From Candidatus Heimdallarchaeota archaeon (GTDB lineage: Archaea; Asgardarchaeota; Heimdallarchaeia; JABLTI01), in assembly GCA_030614005.1 (NCBI GenBank), contig JAUWKS010000103.1:1-7675 (forward strand): DNA of 7,675 bases, read 5' to 3'. Both the position numbers and the translations under genes were made by a program. The notes beneath the pieces are model-generated. The model did no database searches and was not told where the DNA came from. It saw only the letters and a list, made by a program, of their open reading frames with translations. This document shows positions 1 to 7,675 of this stretch, piece after piece (position 1 is the stretch's first letter; every line of letters starts with the position of its first letter).

Positions 1-516
1 ATCGATATCAAAATCAATTAATGAGTCAGCTAAATTATTACCAATGAAACATTCTTTTCCCTCTAAACTACTGAAATTATTGTCATTATTTCCATATTGG
101 TCATCTAGAACAAAATCACCAAATCCTTTATCGAGCTCTTCATCTATCCCTAGAATAGTAACTATTGGTTCGGTTTGATCAGTAACAGTAGAAATTGCCC
201 CCACTAAGTTAGTTATTCTTGGAGCGATGCCATCAATATATTGACCAATAGTTGGATCATTCTTAAAATTCTCATAAACAGAGTAATCGAAGAATTCGAG
301 CTGATATTCTCCTTTTTGTATCGCAATATCAGCATTGCCATATCTTAAACTAACAGTTTCTTGCATAGCATTAACTAACGAATCTGTGGCAACTTGCACA
401 CCAGCTAAAAGTGACACACCAATAAGTATTCCAAGTGTATTTATTACGTTCTTTAATTTCCTTCTGCTGATTCCTCTTAAAGCATGTTTAATGGCAAATA
501 ACAACTGGTAGCCCAC
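1..516 (-). CDS. ABC transporter permease, MacB/FtsX-like family, 5' part only (runs off the left edge)
   Basis: Hand translation gives a stop-free frame from GTG at 516 to base 1 (172 codons), with an in-frame TAA shortly upstream and AGGA before the GTG. Sequence: (M)GYQLLFAIKHALRGISRRKLKNVINTLGILIGVSLLAGVQVATDSLVNAMQETVSLRYGNADIAIQKG...IDGIAPRITNLVGAISTVTDQTEPIVTILGIDEELD...ECFIGNNLADSL. The basic amphipathic helix, 'RRKLKNVINTLGILIGV' TM1, extracytoplasmic domain with 'xxPRI', 'ILGID' and 'IGxxLA' match the MacB_PCD pattern. Confidence 0.85.
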   Translation of the reverse strand, partial: MGYQLLFAIKHALRGISRRKLKNVINTLGILIGVSLLAGVQVATDSLVNAMQETVSLRYGNADIAIQKGEYQLEFFDYSVYENFKNDPTIGQYIDGIAPRITNLVGAISTVTDQTEPIVTILGIDEELDKGFGDFVLDDQYGNNDNNFSSLEGKECFIGNNLADSLIDFDID

Positions 517-758
517 TCCAATGTTTCCTATAAATAATAATTAGTTGTATTGTTATAAATTGATAAACATTGATATTCTAATAGATAAGGTACTATTTCT
601 TATAGTTTTTAAGTGAAATGTTTGTCACTTGTTGCTTACTTTCCAAAAACGGTTTATCTACATTAACTTTTTGAAAGGGAATGAAATAAATGTTACAACC
701 TCAAAAGATTTATTCATTAAAAATCCAATATAAGTAAGATTTTCAAAACAAGAGATGT

Positions 759-766
759 TTTATAAG
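759..766 (+). promoter_or_regulatory. Candidate archaeal TATA box (TTTATAAG) with purine-rich BRE-like upstream sequence
   Basis: TTTATAAG follows AAAACAAGAGATG and lies 30 nt before ATG 797. AGGTG (SD-like) is at 785-789. The region is AT-rich, so chance matches are possible. Confidence 0.35.
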
Positions 767-796
767 ATAGGAGAAAAAAATTTCAGGTGCAAAATT

Positions 797-2362
797 ATGA
801 GTTACTCGGATGAGAAAGAAGCAGAAATAGTAAAGTTCCCGGGAATTGCTAGCATATCTTTATCAATTACTCCAATTAGAGAGTTTGAGAGTTTCGAAAT
901 GCTGGAAGCAGTTATCCGAGTCTATGATGAAAACGAAGAACAAATTATGAGGCAAAAAGCAAGATCATTACAAATTATTGCTAAAAATCTCAAACTATTC
1001 ATTCAGAATAGAACTGATTTACCAATAAATGATCGAAGAATGTCAACATGGTTTGCTGATTACCTAACAAAAATGGGTATTAAATTAGATGAAGAAGAAT
1101 CATATCAAATCATCAAAAAGGCTTCTCAGGCACTTGAACGAGTATCTAAGGTAAATATAGAATTAGTTGAACCTTCAGATTTAGTGTCAATTGAGACAGA
1201 TGTCTTAGCTAAGCTGATAGGTTTAAAATCCGATCATTTAATGTCAGAAGATGAACTTAATGATTTATTAGAGAAACATCAAACACCCGTCACTAACAAA
1301 GTTGTTCGAACAATGACCTATATCAATAACGGGGGAATCGAACACAAAGATACTCTTAATCTCGAAATTGTTCCTTCTGAACAAATCTTAAAACACTCTT
1401 TAGTAGCTTCTTTCAAAAATGAAACTGAAAAGGAATTAACAAAAGTTGTTATTTCAGATATTATTCCTTTTACATACAAAGTAACTGATGTAACAAGTAA
1501 AGAGGGAGGAAAATATAAAAAAGAATTATTAGAAAGTGGTTTGAAAATTACTTGGAAAGTAAGTAAAGTTGCACCAGGTAATGAAGTAAAAATGATCTAT
1601 AATTTTGAGAAAAGAATTCCTAGAACAATTTACATAAGAAAGAATGAAGAAATTAGAATAGTTCAAGATTATAATTCAATAATTGTTGAGAAACCAGAAG
1701 GTGTACCAGTAAAGAGATACTTCATTTCGGAAGTTATCAATCTATTACCTGTAACATTGGATGAACTTATTATTCGAGATTTAATTCCAACAGAAATGCA
1801 AGTAAAGGAAGAGAGCATTACTGAAGAAACAAAGTCAATTGATTTTGGACAAAACTTTGGTATAAACATCCAAGTTTCGGAAACAAATGTTGAAACCGGA
1901 ACCAAACATTTGAAGAAATATGAAATCATTCCTTCTCCTTTGATTTGGAAATACAGCCTTATTTCGCCAGTAAGTGAAGAAGATTCACGAGAAATTGCTG
2001 TAACAAAACTAATTGAACAAACTTCCAAAGAAGACATTTACATTTGTACAATTGTTGCATCAACTCCTGAACCTTGCAAAATAATTTGTCAAGTAGAAGA
2101 TGGCTTAAAAGCAACTGAATTCATGCCATCTGAACTTGCTCCAAATGCTTCTGGAAACACACTTACTTGGGAAATTGAGGGAAAATTAACCGTTTCATTA
2201 GTTCTTGAAGGGAAACTATCTAAACGGCCTCAACCACCAAAAGTTAAAATTGGCACTAAAGACTACGAAATGCCTGAAAGTAGCATTGTAATGGAAAGAA
2301 AGAGTAAGATAATCGCTATGCCTTTCAGTCATGTTGCTCTTTACAGAAAAGTTTCGAGATAA
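797..2362 (+). CDS. Uncharacterised protein: N-terminal alpha/beta domain plus three DUF11-like Ig/beta-sandwich repeats, no signal peptide or TM helix
   Basis: Long ORF (track 755..2362). Start placed at the second Met (797) because AGGTG precedes it and ATG 755 abuts a TATA-like box. Repeat motifs: 'FKNETEKELTKVVISDIIP...ITWKVSKVAPGNEVKMIY', 'VINLLPVTLDELIIRDLIP...TNVETGTKHLKKY', 'VTKLIEQ...YICTIV...GNTLTWEI'. These resemble the DUF11 pattern 'V-x-N...V-V-x-D-x-L-P...L-x-W-x-I-x-x-L-x-P-G'. Coding is well supported; the domain call is by eye. Confidence 0.6.
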   Translation: MSYSDEKEAEIVKFPGIASISLSITPIREFESFEMLEAVIRVYDENEEQIMRQKARSLQIIAKNLKLFIQNRTDLPINDRRMSTWFADYLTKMGIKLDEEESYQIIKKASQALERVSKVNIELVEPSDLVSIETDVLAKLIGLKSDHLMSEDELNDLLEKHQTPVTNKVVRTMTYINNGGIEHKDTLNLEIVPSEQILKHSLVASFKNETEKELTKVVISDIIPFTYKVTDVTSKEGGKYKKELLESGLKITWKVSKVAPGNEVKMIYNFEKRIPRTIYIRKNEEIRIVQDYNSIIVEKPEGVPVKRYFISEVINLLPVTLDELIIRDLIPTEMQVKEESITEETKSIDFGQNFGINIQVSETNVETGTKHLKKYEIIPSPLIWKYSLISPVSEEDSREIAVTKLIEQTSKEDIYICTIVASTPEPCKIICQVEDGLKATEFMPSELAPNASGNTLTWEIEGKLTVSLVLEGKLSKRPQPPKVKIGTKDYEMPESSIVMERKSKIIAMPFSHVALYRKVSR

Positions 2363-2392
2363 AAAGAAAGTAAAAGAAAAATGGAAAATAGT
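2363..2392 (-). terminator. U-rich archaeal-type terminator candidate for pyrF
   Basis: The 32-nt gap between convergent genes reads CTATTTTCCATTTTTCTTTTACTTTCTTTT on the minus strand, directly after the pyrF stop. Confidence 0.45.
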
Positions 2393-2394
2393 TA

Positions 2395-3222
2395 CTATTT
2401 TCCTTTTCTTACTTCGTTGAATTTTTTATTATATTCTTCAGCTGATGCGTGTAAATCAGAGGAATAAAGAATAGCACGACCAACATTTAACATAACATTT
2501 TCTCCACCGTGTTGAATAATTTTCTTTAAATCACCTTGTTGTTTTCCAATCCCAGGAACCAACATTACAACATCCTCTCCTGCTAATCGTCGAATAGTTT
2601 GTATGTCTTCTGTGGTAACATGTCCCGTAGCACCAACAACCATTCCATCCCCATTACTTATTTTAAGCTCCTCTGCAATAAATTCATAACCTTTTTTTCC
2701 ATCAATAATACCCTCTTTCATAAAATAGATTGCATCTGGATTGGACATTAAAGTAAGAGTAATTAACCCTAAACCAGCATTGTGTGCACTCTTGAGACTA
2801 TCAGCAATATTGCCAGCAAATGGAGAAAACGTTACTGCATCAAAACCCATTTCCTTCATCCAATAGAAACCAGAATCATTTGTAGAACCAATATCACCGA
2901 TTTTCTGATCGAGAATAGAAACTAAGCCTTGGTCATGAATTTTTTTATTCATTTTTTTGTAAGCATCAATGCCAATATGAAAGATATACTGATTATTAGG
3001 TTTGATTGCACAACAAAAATCTTGAACGCTCTCTAAAAAATCATCAAAAAATGAGAGGATTGCGTCTTCATTTGATGTACCATCAGCAAAATAACTTTCT
3101 TTCATAACGTTTTTTTCTCTTTGCTGAGGAATTGCAGGATCAAAACCAGCACAAAGAATGGAGTCTTTTTCATCGCGAGCTTTTTGATAATTCTTTAAAA
3201 AGTCCTTATCATAGGTAGTCAT
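2395..3222 (-). CDS. pyrF: Orotidine-5'-phosphate decarboxylase
   Basis: Catalytic DxKxxDIxxT motif (DQKIGDIGST), plus LCAGFDP, AIKPN, DAVTFSPFAG, VVGAT, LVPGIGKQQGD and NVGRAILY. These motifs match the long 'subfamily 2' OMP decarboxylases. Confidence 0.95.
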   Translation of the reverse strand: MTTYDKDFLKNYQKARDEKDSILCAGFDPAIPQQREKNVMKESYFADGTSNEDAILSFFDDFLESVQDFCCAIKPNNQYIFHIGIDAYKKMNKKIHDQGLVSILDQKIGDIGSTNDSGFYWMKEMGFDAVTFSPFAGNIADSLKSAHNAGLGLITLTLMSNPDAIYFMKEGIIDGKKGYEFIAEELKISNGDGMVVGATGHVTTEDIQTIRRLAGEDVVMLVPGIGKQQGDLKKIIQHGGENVMLNVGRAILYSSDLHASAEEYNKKFNEVRKGK

Positions 3223-3358
3223 TATTCTTTCAACCTTCTTTCTAAATTGTTTCAGAACTAGAATATTACTTTTGCTGAAAAAACAACCTTCATAATTTAA
3301 ATATTAAAGAATAAACCTTATTTGTAATGATACTAGTCGATAACTAGTGAGTAGACAA

Positions 3359-3577
3359 ATGAAAGTTCGTACAATAGGTTTCGCTGAGAAAATGTTTGGA
3401 TTCAAAGAAAAAGAGATTACCTTTGAAGGAGCCAAATTATTAAGCGAAGTTCTAGATTTTACTGAAATTCCACTGAATCTGATTGCAATAATAATAAACG
3501 AAAAAGCAGCAACCAAAGATCATAAAGTAAAAAATTCAGATAAAGTAATAATAACACAAATTGTTGCAGGCGGTTAA
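3359..3577 (+). CDS. Ubiquitin-like beta-grasp sulfur carrier / small modifier, ThiS/MoaD/SAMP family
   Basis: 72 aa from ATG 3359 (76 aa if GTG 3347 is used). MKVRTIGF first strand, IAIIINEKA, 'KVKNSDKVIITQIVAGG*' with a free C-terminal di-glycine directly before the stop. Confidence 0.88.
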   Translation: MKVRTIGFAEKMFGFKEKEITFEGAKLLSEVLDFTEIPLNLIAIIINEKAATKDHKVKNSDKVIITQIVAGG

Positions 3578-3814
3578 TTCATTCTCTTTTACATTAACTT
3601 GTTTTCGAAAATATGCAAAGAAAATCATTCAACTTTCTATTTCTTCTGAAGCAATTTTATTCAATTAATCATATACAGTAAAATTTCAAAATGTATTTTA
3701 ATATGATTGATTCAATTTAGTTCGTACTTCATTTGAGTACATATTACAACTATAATCGATGAATATCGATCAACAATCTGATGCAGAAGTTTTGCATAAG
3801 GGTGTTGCAACTAT

Positions 3815-3820
3815 AAGGAG
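3815..3820 (+). promoter_or_regulatory. Shine-Dalgarno-like site for the hydrolase gene
   Basis: AAGGAG ends 11 nt before ATG 3832. Confidence 0.5.
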
Positions 3821-3831
3821 TAAGATATATT

Positions 3832-4611
3832 ATGCCTAAAAAGGCTCATTTTCACGAGAAATTAGATATTAGTGCTAAAATTGTAGTAGCTACTGGATTG
3901 GGCGGTGCAGGACGAGAATATCCTGATTATTTTGAGAAATTTGGAAAAGAAAACGTCACAATTGTTTGTTGGGATGATTCTGTTTCAGATCTTAATTCCC
4001 ATATTGCGAAATTGAAGGAAAGTATTCCAAAAGAAGAACCTTTTGTGGCAGTTGGTCACAGCATGGGTGGTTGTATCTGGTTGGAACTTCTGAACAGAGA
4101 GATTATTCCGAATCAGCTCGGACAAGTTTTAGTTGGTTGTTCAAGAAGAGTGAGAGGAGATCAAGGTGTTGAATTTATTATGAAACGCCCTTGGTGGTTT
4201 ATTTGGATAATGGTTCTTGGATTGACATTAATCTTTCCAATAATGCTTCTCGTTTGGCGAAAGAAAACCTTTGACACTTATCGAGAGCTTTGGCGATTTG
4301 TAACAAAAGATGGCGCAAGGAAAATTCATAATCAGTACAATTTAACACTCAAAAAATTAGGAAATATAGAATCAGTAATGAATCCAGATTTACCTTTAGT
4401 AATCATTCGCTTAACAAGAGACACTCTAGTTGATGAAGAAGATTTAGAATTCACTAAATCGATGTTCAACGATCATCGTGAGCAAATCATTGAAAGCAAT
4501 TCGCTACACTTAACAGAGAAATTCGACCATATTACAGTTGAAAAAATCGCTCTTGAAGCAGAATACCTTGGATTAATTTCTAAGAAAGAAAAAATAGCAG
4601 TTATGCATTAA
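3832..4611 (+). CDS. Alpha/beta-fold serine hydrolase (esterase/lipase-like), probably membrane-associated
   Basis: Nucleophile elbow VAVGHSMGG (Ser77), oxyanion-loop-like VVATGLGG, candidate Asp197 (IIRLTRDTLV) and His226 (SNSLHLT) in canonical order. Hydrophobic segment at residues 121-142. Confidence 0.85.
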   Translation: MPKKAHFHEKLDISAKIVVATGLGGAGREYPDYFEKFGKENVTIVCWDDSVSDLNSHIAKLKESIPKEEPFVAVGHSMGGCIWLELLNREIIPNQLGQVLVGCSRRVRGDQGVEFIMKRPWWFIWIMVLGLTLIFPIMLLVWRKKTFDTYRELWRFVTKDGARKIHNQYNLTLKKLGNIESVMNPDLPLVIIRLTRDTLVDEEDLEFTKSMFNDHREQIIESNSLHLTEKFDHITVEKIALEAEYLGLISKKEKIAVMH

Positions 4612-4638
4612 CTGCTTTCTTTTATTTATTTTATTATA
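4612..4638 (+). terminator. T-rich terminator candidate for the hydrolase, overlapping the nadC stop
   Basis: CTGCTTTCTTTTATTTATTTTATTAT follows the hydrolase stop in a 14-nt gap between convergent genes. Confidence 0.35.
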
Positions 4639-5489
4639 TCAAGAGATAGATCAATTGATTTGAATGAATGAGTTAGAGCTCCAGAAGAAATAATATCTGC
4701 ACCCAATTTAGCGTATTTATTGATATTCTCTTTGTTAATTCCGCCACTCAATTCCAAAAGCACTCTATCACGTAGTTTGTTTTTCTCTAAGATCTCAATA
4801 GCTTTAACAACTTCCTTGGGGCTCATATTATCTAACATAATAATATCTGCACCTGCTTTAGCTGCTTCAAGCATTGTTTCATAATCTTCTACTTCCACTT
4901 CAATTTTCTTCGAAAAGCTAAGGTGTTTCCTCAATTGTTCAATCGCCGTTGTAATTGAAGTAAATAATACCCTATGATTGTCTTTGAGAAGAACCATATC
5001 ATCTAATCTCAACCTATGAGTATCTCCACCACCACAAGTTACTGCATATTTCTCAAAGAGACGCATACCAGGTGTGGTTTTTCGTGTCGCAGCAATTACT
5101 GTTTTAGAACCTTCAGGAACTTGCTGTACAAAAGACCATGTCTTTGTTGCAATGCCACACATTCGTGCTAAGAGATTGAGTGCCAGCCTTTCTCTGAGAA
5201 GAATATTTTTCATTGATCCATAAATGAGAGCAATATCTTGATCTTTTACCAATTTATCGCCATCATTTGCTTTTAGAATAACTTCACAACCTAATGGTTC
5301 GAAAATGTCAGAAATTAATACTGCACCAGAAAGAACACAATCTTCTCGAGTGAATATTCTAGCTTGTGCTTGCTTTTCTACAGGAATAAGAATTTCTGAA
5401 GTGATATCGCCATATCCCTCATCTTCTATTATGAAGTTTTTTAGTAATTCACCTGCGAGTGTTTTCGGAAAAGGATAGATTCTCTTCAT
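4626..5489 (-). CDS. nadC: Nicotinate-nucleotide pyrophosphorylase (quinolinate phosphoribosyltransferase)
   Basis: GDITS, ERLALNLLARMCGIAT, TRKTTPGMRLFEKYAVTCGGG, HRLRLDDMVLLKDNH, IEVEVE, ADIIMLDNM, ELSGGI, DIISSGALTHS. Its ATG overlaps the nadA TGA (ATGA, 5486-5489). Confidence 0.97.
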   Translation of the reverse strand: MKRIYPFPKTLAGELLKNFIIEDEGYGDITSEILIPVEKQAQARIFTREDCVLSGAVLISDIFEPLGCEVILKANDGDKLVKDQDIALIYGSMKNILLRERLALNLLARMCGIATKTWSFVQQVPEGSKTVIAATRKTTPGMRLFEKYAVTCGGGDTHRLRLDDMVLLKDNHRVLFTSITTAIEQLRKHLSFSKKIEVEVEDYETMLEAAKAGADIIMLDNMSPKEVVKAIEILEKNKLRDRVLLELSGGINKENINKYAKLGADIISSGALTHSFKSIDLSLDIIK

Positions 5490-6442
5490 GTTAATTCAAA
5501 CATCCTCAATATTGCTTTTTCCGCTTTATCATGAATTTCTTTTGGTATGATAATTTCATGTTGTTCATATAAGAGTGAATCGCGAACGAGTTCTAATGTA
5601 TTCTTTTTCATATTTTTACATATTGCAGTATCCTTTGCTAGAATAAAATTCTTTTCGGGATGATCATGATTTAATCGATCTACTAAACCCTTTTCCGTCG
5701 CAACAATGACATTTTTTGCTTCTGTTTCTTTCCCGAAGTAAATCATTGCAGCTGTAGATCCAACGAAATCAGCAATATCTTGTACTTCTGGATTGCATTC
5801 AGGATGAGCAATAACAACTGCATCTGGATACTGTTTTTTTATTTCATTAATAGTTGCAACATCAAATCTTCTATGGACGTAACAATGACCATTTTTGGGT
5901 ATTGGAATAACTTCAACATCTGGTAACGTTTTCTTTACGTACAATCCTAGGTTTTTATCTGGACCGAAGAAGACTTTCTTCACTCCAAGGTTTTTCACTA
6001 CAGTTGCAGCATTACTACTCGTGCAAGTTACATCTGCAGCTGCTTTCGTTTCAGCAGTTGTATTCACGTAAACAACGACAGGTATATCCTCATCGTATTC
6101 TTTGCGAGTGGCTTCAATTAACTCTGCACTGCATTGATCCGCCAAAGGGCATCCAGCATCAGGGTTTGGAATGAGAATTTTCATTTTAGGGTTTAGAATT
6201 TTTGCTGTTTCAGCCATGAAATGCACTCCAGCAAAAATAATCATTTTGGCATCTTTTGCATCACGCGCAGCTTCACTTAGTCCTAATGAGTCCCCAACAA
6301 GATCAGCAATTTCTTGAATTTCCAATTCTTGATAGTAATGTGCCAAAATAAAAGCATTCTTTTCCTTCTTCAGTTTGCGAATCTCTTGTTGGAGCTTAGC
6401 AATTTCTTCTGGTGTTTTTTTAGCTGGTATTTTTAAAGCCAT
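5486..6442 (-). CDS. nadA: Quinolinate synthase A, [4Fe-4S]
   Basis: ILAHYYQ, VGDSL, FAGVHFMAETAKILNP, YVNT, CTSSNA, FGPDKNLG, AHPEC, GST, TEKG. The three cluster-ligating Cys motifs are present: AGCPLA, GHCYVH and AICKNMK. Confidence 0.97.
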   Translation of the reverse strand: MALKIPAKKTPEEIAKLQQEIRKLKKEKNAFILAHYYQELEIQEIADLVGDSLGLSEAARDAKDAKMIIFAGVHFMAETAKILNPKMKILIPNPDAGCPLADQCSAELIEATRKEYDEDIPVVVYVNTTAETKAAADVTCTSSNAATVVKNLGVKKVFFGPDKNLGLYVKKTLPDVEVIPIPKNGHCYVHRRFDVATINEIKKQYPDAVVIAHPECNPEVQDIADFVGSTAAMIYFGKETEAKNVIVATEKGLVDRLNHDHPEKNFILAKDTAICKNMKKNTLELVRDSLLYEQHEIIIPKEIHDKAEKAILRMFELT

Positions 6443-6466
6443 AGGAAACCAAACGTCCCTTAAATT

Positions 6467-6474
6467 GTTTATAA
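6467..6474 (-). promoter_or_regulatory. Candidate TATA box for nadA-nadC (probably a leaderless or very short-leader mRNA)
   Basis: TTATAAAC on the minus strand, with 24 nt between it and the nadA ATG, a purine-rich GAGGAAAAGAA upstream, and no obvious SD before the ATG. Confidence 0.45.
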
Positions 6475-6532
6475 TAGAAGTTCTTTTCCTCTTTACAATT
6501 AAAACCTTCGCTTAGCTATCTTAGTTTTGATT

Positions 6533-6554
6533 AATAAAAAAATTATAAAAATAA
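6533..6554 (-). terminator. U-rich terminator candidate after the zinc-ribbon/CdvA-like gene
   Basis: The minus strand reads TTATTTTTATAATTTTTTTATT about 55 nt after the stop, upstream of the candidate nadA promoter. Confidence 0.4.
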
Positions 6555-6608
6555 GTGTTTCAAGAGAATTAAGGAAATCACTTCTTTTAACGCTCTTGTT
6601 TAAATAAC

Positions 6609-7394
6609 TCATACTCGAGACATTCGAGCAATCACTTCATCAACAGCGCCAATTAACCCTTCAATATTTCGCGCATCTAACTCTTTTATTTGTGCACGAT
6701 ATTCTGCATCAGTTAATTCACCAACTTGATGGCGAGCAAATAATTCTTCTTTCTTTGCAATCGTTTCATCCTTATCATAAAGGAGATTATCACGGTATTG
6801 TTTGAGCTTTGCTTCCTCTTCTTCAACTTTAGCCTCGGTAGCTTCTTCTTTATCATGATATTCTTTCTTTAATCGATCATAAGTTGAATCTTGAATACGA
6901 CCTTCTTTGTAAATATCTTCTAATTTTTCTTGACGCTCGCGCATTTCAAGCACATCTTGTACAAGGTTCAAAAGTGATACAGAAGCCATTGCTTTTCGTT
7001 TGTCTGCGATACTTTTTTCATGTTTTTTAATTGCAGTAGTTATTTTCTTTAAATCAGCATCATATTCTTTTTCAGTTATTGCTTCTTCAACTCTAAATTT
7101 AATCTCTAACAAATCTTTGTCTTTGTTTAAGGTCTCAACTTTCTTTTGGATAGGAATAATTTTTGAGAGAGCTAGAAGTGATTCTTCTTCCTCAGGTGTT
7201 AATTCCACTTTTACTTTTGGAGGTTTCTTTGAACTGGAACGTGGTTTGGTTTTTTCTTTGACTGGTTCCACAGGTTCTTCACTTACATTTACTTGAGAAG
7301 TGGTTTTTTCTTTATCCAATTTTGTACCACAGGATCTACAAAAACGAGCACCGGGTATTGCTCTGGCACCACATTTAGAACAAAACTTTACCAT
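6609..7394 (-). CDS. Zinc-ribbon protein with CdvA-like helical/coiled-coil repeats
   Basis: N-terminal C5xxC8-x10-C19xxC22 (FCSKCGA...ARFCRSCGTKL), a Lys/Pro/Ser/Glu-rich linker (about residues 27-70), then three helical units with turn motifs 'LLEIKFRVEEAITEKEY', 'LEDIYKEGRIQDSTY' and 'LFARHQVGELTDAEY'. The zinc ribbon and coiled coil are solid; CdvA similarity is recognised by eye. Confidence 0.7.
   Translation of the reverse strand: MVKFCSKCGARAIPGARFCRSCGTKLDKEKTTSQVNVSEEPVEPVKEKTKPRSSSKKPPKVKVELTPEEEESLLALSKIIPIQKKVETLNKDKDLLEIKFRVEEAITEKEYDADLKKITTAIKKHEKSIADKRKAMASVSLLNLVQDVLEMRERQEKLEDIYKEGRIQDSTYDRLKKEYHDKEEATEAKVEEEEAKLKQYRDNLLYDKDETIAKKEELFARHQVGELTDAEYRAQIKELDARNIEGLIGAVDEVIARMSRV
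7317..7394 (-). other. C4 zinc-ribbon domain (zinc_ribbon_2-like) within the CDS
   Basis: MVKFCSKCGARAIPGARFCRSCGTKL contains two CxxC pairs. Confidence 0.85.
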
Positions 7395-7675
7395 TTTTAA
7401 TCAGCTACCATATTATTAGTAATGTATAACGTCACAATCTCGTATTTATTAATATTTCAATATCATAGATTAAAAACAATAACCAAGGATTTTTTTAATT
7501 AGACTGTTATTTTATGTTATATTTGACTAATATATAAAATAATGAGTATTTTGTATGCTTTTCTTGTGAGGCGCTGTTCTTTTGAGAGCATTTTTTCTTC
7601 ATACTATTATTGTTTAGCTGAATATATTTCATTTAGCTAAAGAGGTTACTGAAAGTATTGTCCTTTATTTAAAAG

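Follow-up and report, generated by a model that had tools for sequence, protein, structure and literature searches.

The stretch of DNA considered here comprises 7,675 nucleotides from Candidatus Heimdallarchaeota archaeon (GTDB lineage Archaea; Asgardarchaeota; Heimdallarchaeia; JABLTI01), namely positions 1 to 7,675 of the forward strand of contig JAUWKS010000103.1 in GenBank assembly GCA_030614005.1, and this whole stretch is referred to as the window. Towards its right-hand end lies a minus-strand gene, called the zinc-ribbon gene below, whose product joins an N-terminal C4 zinc ribbon, through a disordered tether and a helical hairpin, to a C-terminal domain that resembles the three-helix coiled coil of the archaeal protein CdvA (Table 1). 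[quoted passage not shown] The span given for this module, 6609-6977, corresponds to residues 140-261 plus the stop codon. The sequence strings quoted in support are present in the open reading frame (ORF) at 6609-7394 on the minus strand, and the two turn glycines, G165 and G225, are exactly 60 residues apart.

The ORF is a real gene under purifying selection and not a chance reading frame. Its 46 homologues, of 255-274 residues, share 57-100% identity with it and come without exception from Heimdall-group or 'Asgard group' metagenome-assembled genomes. They align from end to end; the zinc ribbon and the helical portion are near invariant, and the linker varies. Ratios of nonsynonymous to synonymous substitution rates (dN/dS) against four orthologues are 0.11-0.19 overall, 0.08-0.15 in the CdvA-like domain and 0.06-0.15 in the zinc ribbon, rising to 0.27-0.80 in the linker. 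The invariant columns of the ribbon are K3, C5, C8, G9, A10, R11, P14, G15, A16, F18, C19, R20, S21, C22 and G23. The first hairpin contains, at about residues 96-118, a third and weaker copy of the turn motif found twice in the downstream domain; its structural matches are to generic hairpins only (Z ≤9.4).

Table 1. Features of the zinc-ribbon gene and its flanks, in window coordinates (pLDDT, predicted local distance difference test score of the AlphaFold2 model).
Feature	Position	Strand	Details
Complete coding sequence	6609..7394	-	261 residues plus stop; zinc ribbon, tether, helical hairpin and CdvA-like coiled coil, in this order
C4 zinc ribbon, residues 4-26 (CxxC...CxxC)	7317..7385	-	Pfam PF13240 (Zn_Ribbon_1), E 3e-7, above cut-off
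Disordered tether, residues 29-61	7212..7310	-	pLDDT <50 at residues 29-55; variable, gapped alignment columns
First helical hairpin, residues 67-136 (helices 67-102, 108-136)	6987..7196	-	AlphaFold2 model, pLDDT ~90
Predicted CdvA-type three-helix coiled-coil domain, residues 138-261 (helices 140-163, 169-223, 229-240, 244-260)	6612..6983	-	
Turn glycines of the coiled-coil domain	6900-6902 (G165); 6720-6722 (G225)	-	
TATA-like A/T-rich box, putative archaeal promoter	7443..7453	-	~50 nucleotides 5′ of the ATG; read from sequence
T-runs past the stop codon, putative archaeal terminator	6535..6554	-	read from sequence
5′ end of an IS200/IS605-type TnpB element (upstream region and first 14 codons)	7550..7675	-	contig ends inside the element

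The CdvA likeness of the last ~124 residues emerges from both sequence profiles and predicted structure, as the initial annotation had supposed. A profile of the helical part, built from 24 sequences (A2), was searched against all PDB sequences with E-values up to 10, and its sole match was CdvA of S. islandicus (9s9g_A, E 0.014). The alignment runs without a gap over 90 residues, pairing family positions 150-239 with CdvA 83-172. CdvA has two turns, 'LEELYNKQEIPKSDY' around I100 and 'LKMSYISSEIPENAY' around I160, which are likewise 60 residues apart and which fall, in this gapless hidden Markov model alignment, on the turns around I167 and L227 of the zinc-ribbon protein; the CdvA turn pattern named in the annotation is a real one.

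The AlphaFold2 model of the zinc-ribbon protein has a mean pLDDT of 79, and of ~90 in the helices. When it was compared with 48,161 representative PDB chains, without a sequence filter (VIA-align), the top match was again CdvA 9s9g_A (Z 13.6, root-mean-square deviation (rmsd) 1.4 Å), with 124 of 126 residues superposed and model residues 138-261 equivalent to CdvA 71-196. The second-best chain reached Z 9.4, about 4 Z below. Foldseek comparisons with CdvA chains gave a probability of 1.00 and rmsd values of 1.6-2.9 Å over ~120 columns, with poor E-values. Structural and sequence alignments share a single register, with an offset of 67. The CdvA-like coiled-coil family PF18822 is moreover the commonest Pfam match in the orthologues (15 of 24 at E ≤1, best 8e-5) and also in distant Asgard relatives (14 of 28, best 4e-6); in a Pfam scan up to E 10 it did not match the zinc-ribbon protein itself. 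Because the structural match is well separated from all others and extends over the complete domain of either protein, and because independent sequence evidence agrees with it, homology of residues 138-261 to the CdvA coiled-coil domain appears well supported by the profile alignment and the model.

The remainder of the protein differs from CdvA. In CdvA filaments, the coiled coil makes head-to-tail contacts along a strand and receives the PRC barrel belonging to the other strand. CdvA is built of a PRC barrel, the three-helix coiled coil and a flexible linker with, at its end, an E3B peptide, which binds the winged helix of CdvB, and mutation of A90, L94, I100, I149, M153 and I156, which form the hydrophobic head-to-tail contacts, abolishes its filaments (PMC12818579). 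The zinc-ribbon protein has no PRC barrel: residues 1-28 form the zinc ribbon, residues 29-55 are disordered, and the AlphaFold2 model holds no beta-barrel. The replacement of the barrel by a ribbon and flexible linker, proposed at the outset, is therefore borne out. The last residue, 261, corresponds to CdvA 196 in a protein that continues to residue 238; since the chain stops where the coiled coil ends, the linker and E3B peptide are absent. Lacking both barrel and peptide, the protein is a putative CdvA-like scaffold module and not a CdvA orthologue, and it cannot recruit ESCRT-III by the route that CdvA uses. The six filament contacts of CdvA map, in the order given above, to K157, I161, I167, E216, A220 and Q223. 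Compared with CdvA (arCOG04054, NF041007; Sulfolobus and TACK (Thaumarchaeota, Aigarchaeota, Crenarchaeota and Korarchaeota) archaea; 9s9g, 9s9i), the shared part is thus the three-helix domain with two turns 60 residues apart, whereas zinc ribbon, tether and extra hairpin occupy the place of the PRC barrel and the locus lies outside the cdv cluster.

The helical module belongs to a pan-Asgard family of which the zinc-ribbon protein is one member. When 1.84 billion representatives were searched exhaustively with the family profile, 32 clusters scored E <1e-3, and the named distant clusters come from Promethearchaeota, Hermod-, Hod- and Njordarchaeota. Distant members share a module of ~200 residues, made up of the hairpin and the three-helix domain, in most cases with a zinc ribbon N-terminal to it; a few carry the ribbon at the C-terminus or have none. 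They align at profile positions 3-200 (E 1e-17 to 1e-3), and within genomes over positions 6-204. Among 101 sampled Asgard genomes of at least 80% completeness, 68 encode at least one member called at E ≤1e-8, many of them with two or three copies. The gene contexts of the distant homologues vary.

One paralogue is found in the same genome (C9:23221-23982, equivalent to L005:1498-2277, minus strand). It has 259 residues and the same architecture, at 25% identity (E 7e-12), and its gene lies between those for a double helix-turn-helix regulator and ribosomal protein uL16, as does the orthologue in another locus (L018). A further ORF of 527 residues on contig C82 (L007:1447-3030, plus strand) matches the family profile weakly over its N-terminal 200 residues (E 8e-5), with similar turn motifs; its C-terminal 300 residues have no Pfam or Protein Atlas match, and some stretches of them resemble PRC-barrel motifs. 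Arf/Ras-type GTPase and Roadblock/LC7 genes are typical 'eukaryotic signature' neighbours in Asgard archaea, and in Promethearchaeota a distant family member that has a zinc ribbon at each end is encoded near such genes (L016:2354-3007 and 6290-6664; L017).

In relatives of the present genome, the zinc-ribbon gene has a characteristic neighbour. Six orthologous loci (L008-L012 and L020), which span 92% to ~58% protein identity, share the gene order L40e, a gene of ~600 codons, then the divergently transcribed zinc-ribbon gene, nadA and nadC; the two from the closest assemblies (L011, L012) have an extra epimerase-family gene between L40e and the 600-codon gene. The product of the latter (P0094, ~600 residues) is predicted to contain a PRC barrel, a disordered acidic linker, a helical-repeat and winged-helix region and a K/T-rich tail. 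Several lines point to the barrel: Pfam PF05239 matches at E 0.02-0.07, a profile of residues 1-95 finds the PRC-barrel protein MTH1895 (1pm3) at E 0.0036, and the model places beta-barrel strands at residues 24-80. For this N-terminus, the Protein Atlas gave no more than PRC-leaning leads. Residues 214-536, modelled at a pLDDT of ~90, resemble the PCI subunits of the COP9 signalosome (CSN) and proteasome lid, as well as armadillo repeats. The acidic linker carries an invariant 'QADATEQLSK'-type motif (L011:5889-7691, minus strand, and orthologues). In L011, the zinc-ribbon orthologue of the pair is at 8001-8789.

With 71 members, the neighbour family is limited to a single Heimdall-group genus. 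In all seven same-genus genomes that carry both genes on one contig, these are divergent and adjacent, and synonymous sites are saturated (dS >1.5) between some of these genomes. Neither full-length family was found outside this genus (g1) in the class genomes searched. The N-terminal domain of the neighbour is of the archaeal stand-alone PRC-barrel type, like CdpB1/2/3 of Haloferax and MTH1895, but differs from these in adding a PCI-like helical-repeat and winged-helix scaffold and a basic tail to the barrel. No link of the neighbour gene to SepF or FtsZ was seen, in an analysis that made no search aimed at either.

The present locus departs from this arrangement. The contig ends 281 nucleotides 5′ of the ATG of the zinc-ribbon gene; the proximal ~155 nucleotides match the orthologous intergenic region, and beyond about position 7555 the sequence is different. 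What follows is repeat sequence of a TnpB element, present 11 times in the assembly and in several cases at contig ends. A complete copy on contig C8 (L026:1585-3084) encodes a 499-residue protein with OrfB_IS605 and Cas12f1-like TNB domains and the same first 14 residues. The fragment points towards the zinc-ribbon gene and replaces the sequence that leads to the PRC-barrel gene in relatives. A second assembly of the same species (L019) breaks at the same place, and both assemblies carry the same, intact zinc-ribbon gene. Here, either the pair is interrupted or the partner has been lost. A paralogue of the partner is encoded at C57:5277-6785, next to a NurA-like gene, with 24% identity over the helical-repeat and winged-helix region.

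The explanation that we favour, at a probability of roughly 0.55, is that the zinc-ribbon protein is a CdvA-like coiled-coil protein which, with its PRC/PCI-like partner, supplies the two halves of a CdvA-like scaffold. In this model, the CdvA-type domain would self-associate as an assembly module and, in genomes that encode the partner, would dock the partner's PRC barrel in trans, much as happens between the strands of CdvA filaments. The conserved zinc ribbon, on its tether of ~35 residues, could then recruit a further client. The most probable setting would be cell division or the organisation of membrane or envelope, a best guess drawn from CdvA and the CdpB PRC proteins as analogues. The conserved head-to-head pairing with the PRC/PCI-like gene in relatives suggests such a "split CdvA".

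Several observations weigh against this explanation. The scores themselves are low: the PF18822 matches among 10 orthologues scanned singly reach 14-19 bits, against a cut-off of 30 and over positions 2-89 of a profile of 123, and the NCBIfam CdvA equivalog NF041007 gives 10.2 and 13.6 bits against a cut-off of 350. The structural tool itself warns that Z-scores near 13 can arise in all-helical models from helix arrangement alone. Three of the six residues equivalent to CdvA filament contacts are polar (K157, E216 and Q223), with K157 and E216 invariant in the family, and therefore the hydrophobic head-to-tail polymerisation of CdvA is not conserved as such; a polar version of the contact is conceivable from the residues present. 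As regards the partner, pairing with the PRC gene is limited to one genus of related genomes, and may be plain synteny among kin, because nadA, nadC and L40e keep their places too. No PRC gene lies next to distant Asgard homologues in the neighbourhoods inspected, and the PRC profile of the neighbour finds MTH1895 and not the PRC barrel of CdvA itself. Finally, no orthologue of the partner was found in the present, 90%-complete assembly by whole-protein and PRC-profile searches.

There is also a bolder version of the scaffold model. PCI-type platforms build the proteasome lid, CSN and eIF3. In this genus, CdvA would have been split into two back-to-back genes whose products reassemble as a scaffold at the membrane or division site, joining a scaffold of TACK type to a PCI platform of eukaryotic type. 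We regard this as improbable. If true, such a machine would be Asgard-specific, and the pan-Asgard coiled-coil family would mark an unrecognised cytoskeletal or division system in the archaea most closely related to eukaryotes.

The likeness to CdvA could instead reflect an old and common hairpin. The zinc-ribbon protein would then be a generic oligomerising coiled coil made of SHOCT-like helix-turn-helix repeats, its PRC neighbour would be coincidental, and its role, for example tethering a client of the zinc ribbon, would be unrelated to division or ESCRT. We consider this unlikely, while taking it to be the most serious competitor of the scaffold model. SHOCT (PF09851), with a presumed role in oligomerisation, shares the turn motif L-x-x-L-x-x-x-G-x-I/L-[ST]-x-x-E-Y, and matches at the third turn with E 0.002-0.04 in 4 of 24 family members and, in 5 of 28 distant relatives, with E as low as 3e-8. 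Weak scores also come from the GvpG, Sec66 and phage-scaffold models; in addition, every CdvA model scores below its cut-off, and distant homologues stand in varied contexts without PRC or ESCRT neighbours. Yet the SHOCT match spans 24 residues, whereas the CdvA match takes in all 124 residues of the domain in both proteins at 1.4 Å, in the register of the sequence alignment; CdvA is moreover the sole sequence match in the PDB, and PF18822 the commonest Pfam match in the near and far family sets alike. In the zinc-ribbon protein, whose Pfam matches beyond the ribbon are all weak, SHOCT aligns to residues 216-239 (E 0.04) with 14.0-14.5 bits, against a gathering score of 27 (orthologues, 16.8-17.9 bits). 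SHOCT is, moreover, a single C-terminal unit of 28 residues, in contrast to the three turns of a ~200-residue module whose last 124 residues match CdvA as a whole. A better match to SHOCT or a generic coiled coil, named by the initial annotation as a possible refutation of its claim, is not what the structural comparison gave (CdvA, Z 13.6; next chain, 9.4), and SHOCT stays below its gathering score in the zinc-ribbon protein.

The least supported reading keeps the link to ESCRT. Hairpins akin to those of CdvA and of the steadiness box would join an ESCRT-I-type headpiece or recruit Asgard ESCRT-III, and the zinc ribbon would serve to bind ubiquitin or cargo in the manner of the zinc fingers of Vps36. 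In its favour, a link has been drawn between the CdvA hairpin and the steadiness box of Vps23, Vps37 and Vps28, and zinc ribbons are frequent in Asgard ESCRT-I and -II proteins (PMC11188069; 10.1101/2023.07.25.550441). The genome encodes ESCRT-III and MIT/Vps4 proteins, and the model matches ESCRT-I core hairpins (2caz_D, Z 9.2, rmsd 1.3 Å over 60 residues; 2f66_A, 2p22_A and 6vme_B, Z 8.4-8.5). These matches, however, lie within the generic helical-hairpin background of Z 8-9.4, no Vps23-core or Vps28 match appeared in Pfam scans of the zinc-ribbon protein and its family, and the protein has no E3B-type tail. Gene context argues in the same direction. As initially annotated, the gene lies outside any ESCRT cluster: no cdvB, cdvC, Vps4 or other ESCRT gene occurs in the window, and the Snf7 (ESCRT-III) genes of this genome are on contigs C9 and C107 and its MIT/Vps4 genes on C85 and C63, with none on the contig of the zinc-ribbon gene. 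ESCRT genes are likewise absent near the six orthologous loci and near the distant homologues, and in five closed or near-closed Asgard genomes superfamily members lie 64 kb to >1 Mb from ESCRT-III genes. The proposal of a stand-alone ESCRT-III adaptor is not supported, and we hold it to be very unlikely.

CdvA is usually treated as specific to TACK archaea, and Asgard archaea are said to lack it. Related proteins have been described, as the initial annotation had noted of CdvA-like helical fusions. In Thermoproteales, arCOG03733 combines a zinc ribbon, a long coiled coil and a CdvA-like domain, with arCOG03734 as its ribbon-less paralogue (Makarova et al. 2024, PMC11188069), and in Bathyarchaeia CdvA-like proteins are encoded outside the cdv locus (PMC11188069). 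An Asgard cluster labelled CdvA (cog.004117) is cited in 10.1101/2023.07.25.550441, and helical domains of CdvA type had been noted in Asgard archaea by earlier surveys. Since surveys already describe such proteins, the finding is not new at the level of the domain.

Compared by description, arCOG03733 shows the same order of parts (N-terminal zinc ribbon, helical spacer, CdvA-like domain) and the same location away from ESCRT genes, but arCOG03733 and arCOG03734 belong to another phylum and pair with each other rather than with a PRC/PCI-like gene. Tandem pairs of family members within 1-3 kb in other Asgard genomes (G099:C6:944704-948247; G104:C14:37216-40364; G109:C114:32641-34027) recall this Thermoproteales pairing. 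The Asgard steadiness-box proteins UEV-Vps23, Vps28 and Znr_PH_CC_SB (cog.011556) likewise combine zinc ribbons, coiled coils and a hairpin of CdvA or steadiness-box type. In contrast to them, the zinc-ribbon protein has no UEV, PH or Vps28 C-terminal domain, lies outside ESCRT clusters, and matches the full three-helix CdvA domain, not a single steadiness-box hairpin.

A full CdvA-type coiled-coil domain proves to be common across Asgard genomes, in this architecture of zinc ribbon, tether, hairpin and coiled coil. If these proteins polymerise or scaffold, they become candidates for the machinery of division and membrane organisation in the archaea closest to eukaryotes; they are also relevant to the idea that CdvA and the steadiness box of ESCRT-I share an origin. 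The genus-specific pairing offers a concrete candidate interaction between the zinc-ribbon protein and the PRC/PCI-like protein. Were the likeness a shared hairpin motif only, the gene would encode one more uncharacterised coiled-coil protein.

Two other assignments were rejected. A phmmer search of the PDB with the single sequence found eL40-type zinc ribbons alone (E >1), and a relationship to ribosomal eL40 was discarded, as the zinc knuckle is the sole matching part. Some source annotations name an SMC/SbcC-type ATPase; this was set aside, as the protein offers a coiled coil only, without an ATPase domain.

The putative promoter and terminator signals (Table 1) suggest that the zinc-ribbon gene is probably transcribed separately from nadA. 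The TATA-like box is the best-kept stretch 5′ of the gene in five orthologous loci. Among the three closest orthologous loci, the 160 nucleotides 5′ of the ATG (window 7395-7555) are conserved about as well as coding sequence and the final 100 are near identical; more distant loci retain only the TATA-like box.

The window also contains genes for a MacB-like permease, a 535-residue ORF product, pyrF, a ThiS-like protein, a hydrolase, nadC and nadA, and a scan of it against Rfam gave no match. The 535-residue ORF (755-2362, plus strand) has no clear family and a weak DUF11 match only; its position is kept in relatives, with 521-residue genes in two loci (L011 and L020) that have no Pfam matches. 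The ThiS-like product (3347-3577, plus strand), a ubiquitin-like protein of the ThiS/MoaD family, has 76 residues and a GG end; its gene adjoins pyrF and the hydrolase gene, and is conserved in relatives.

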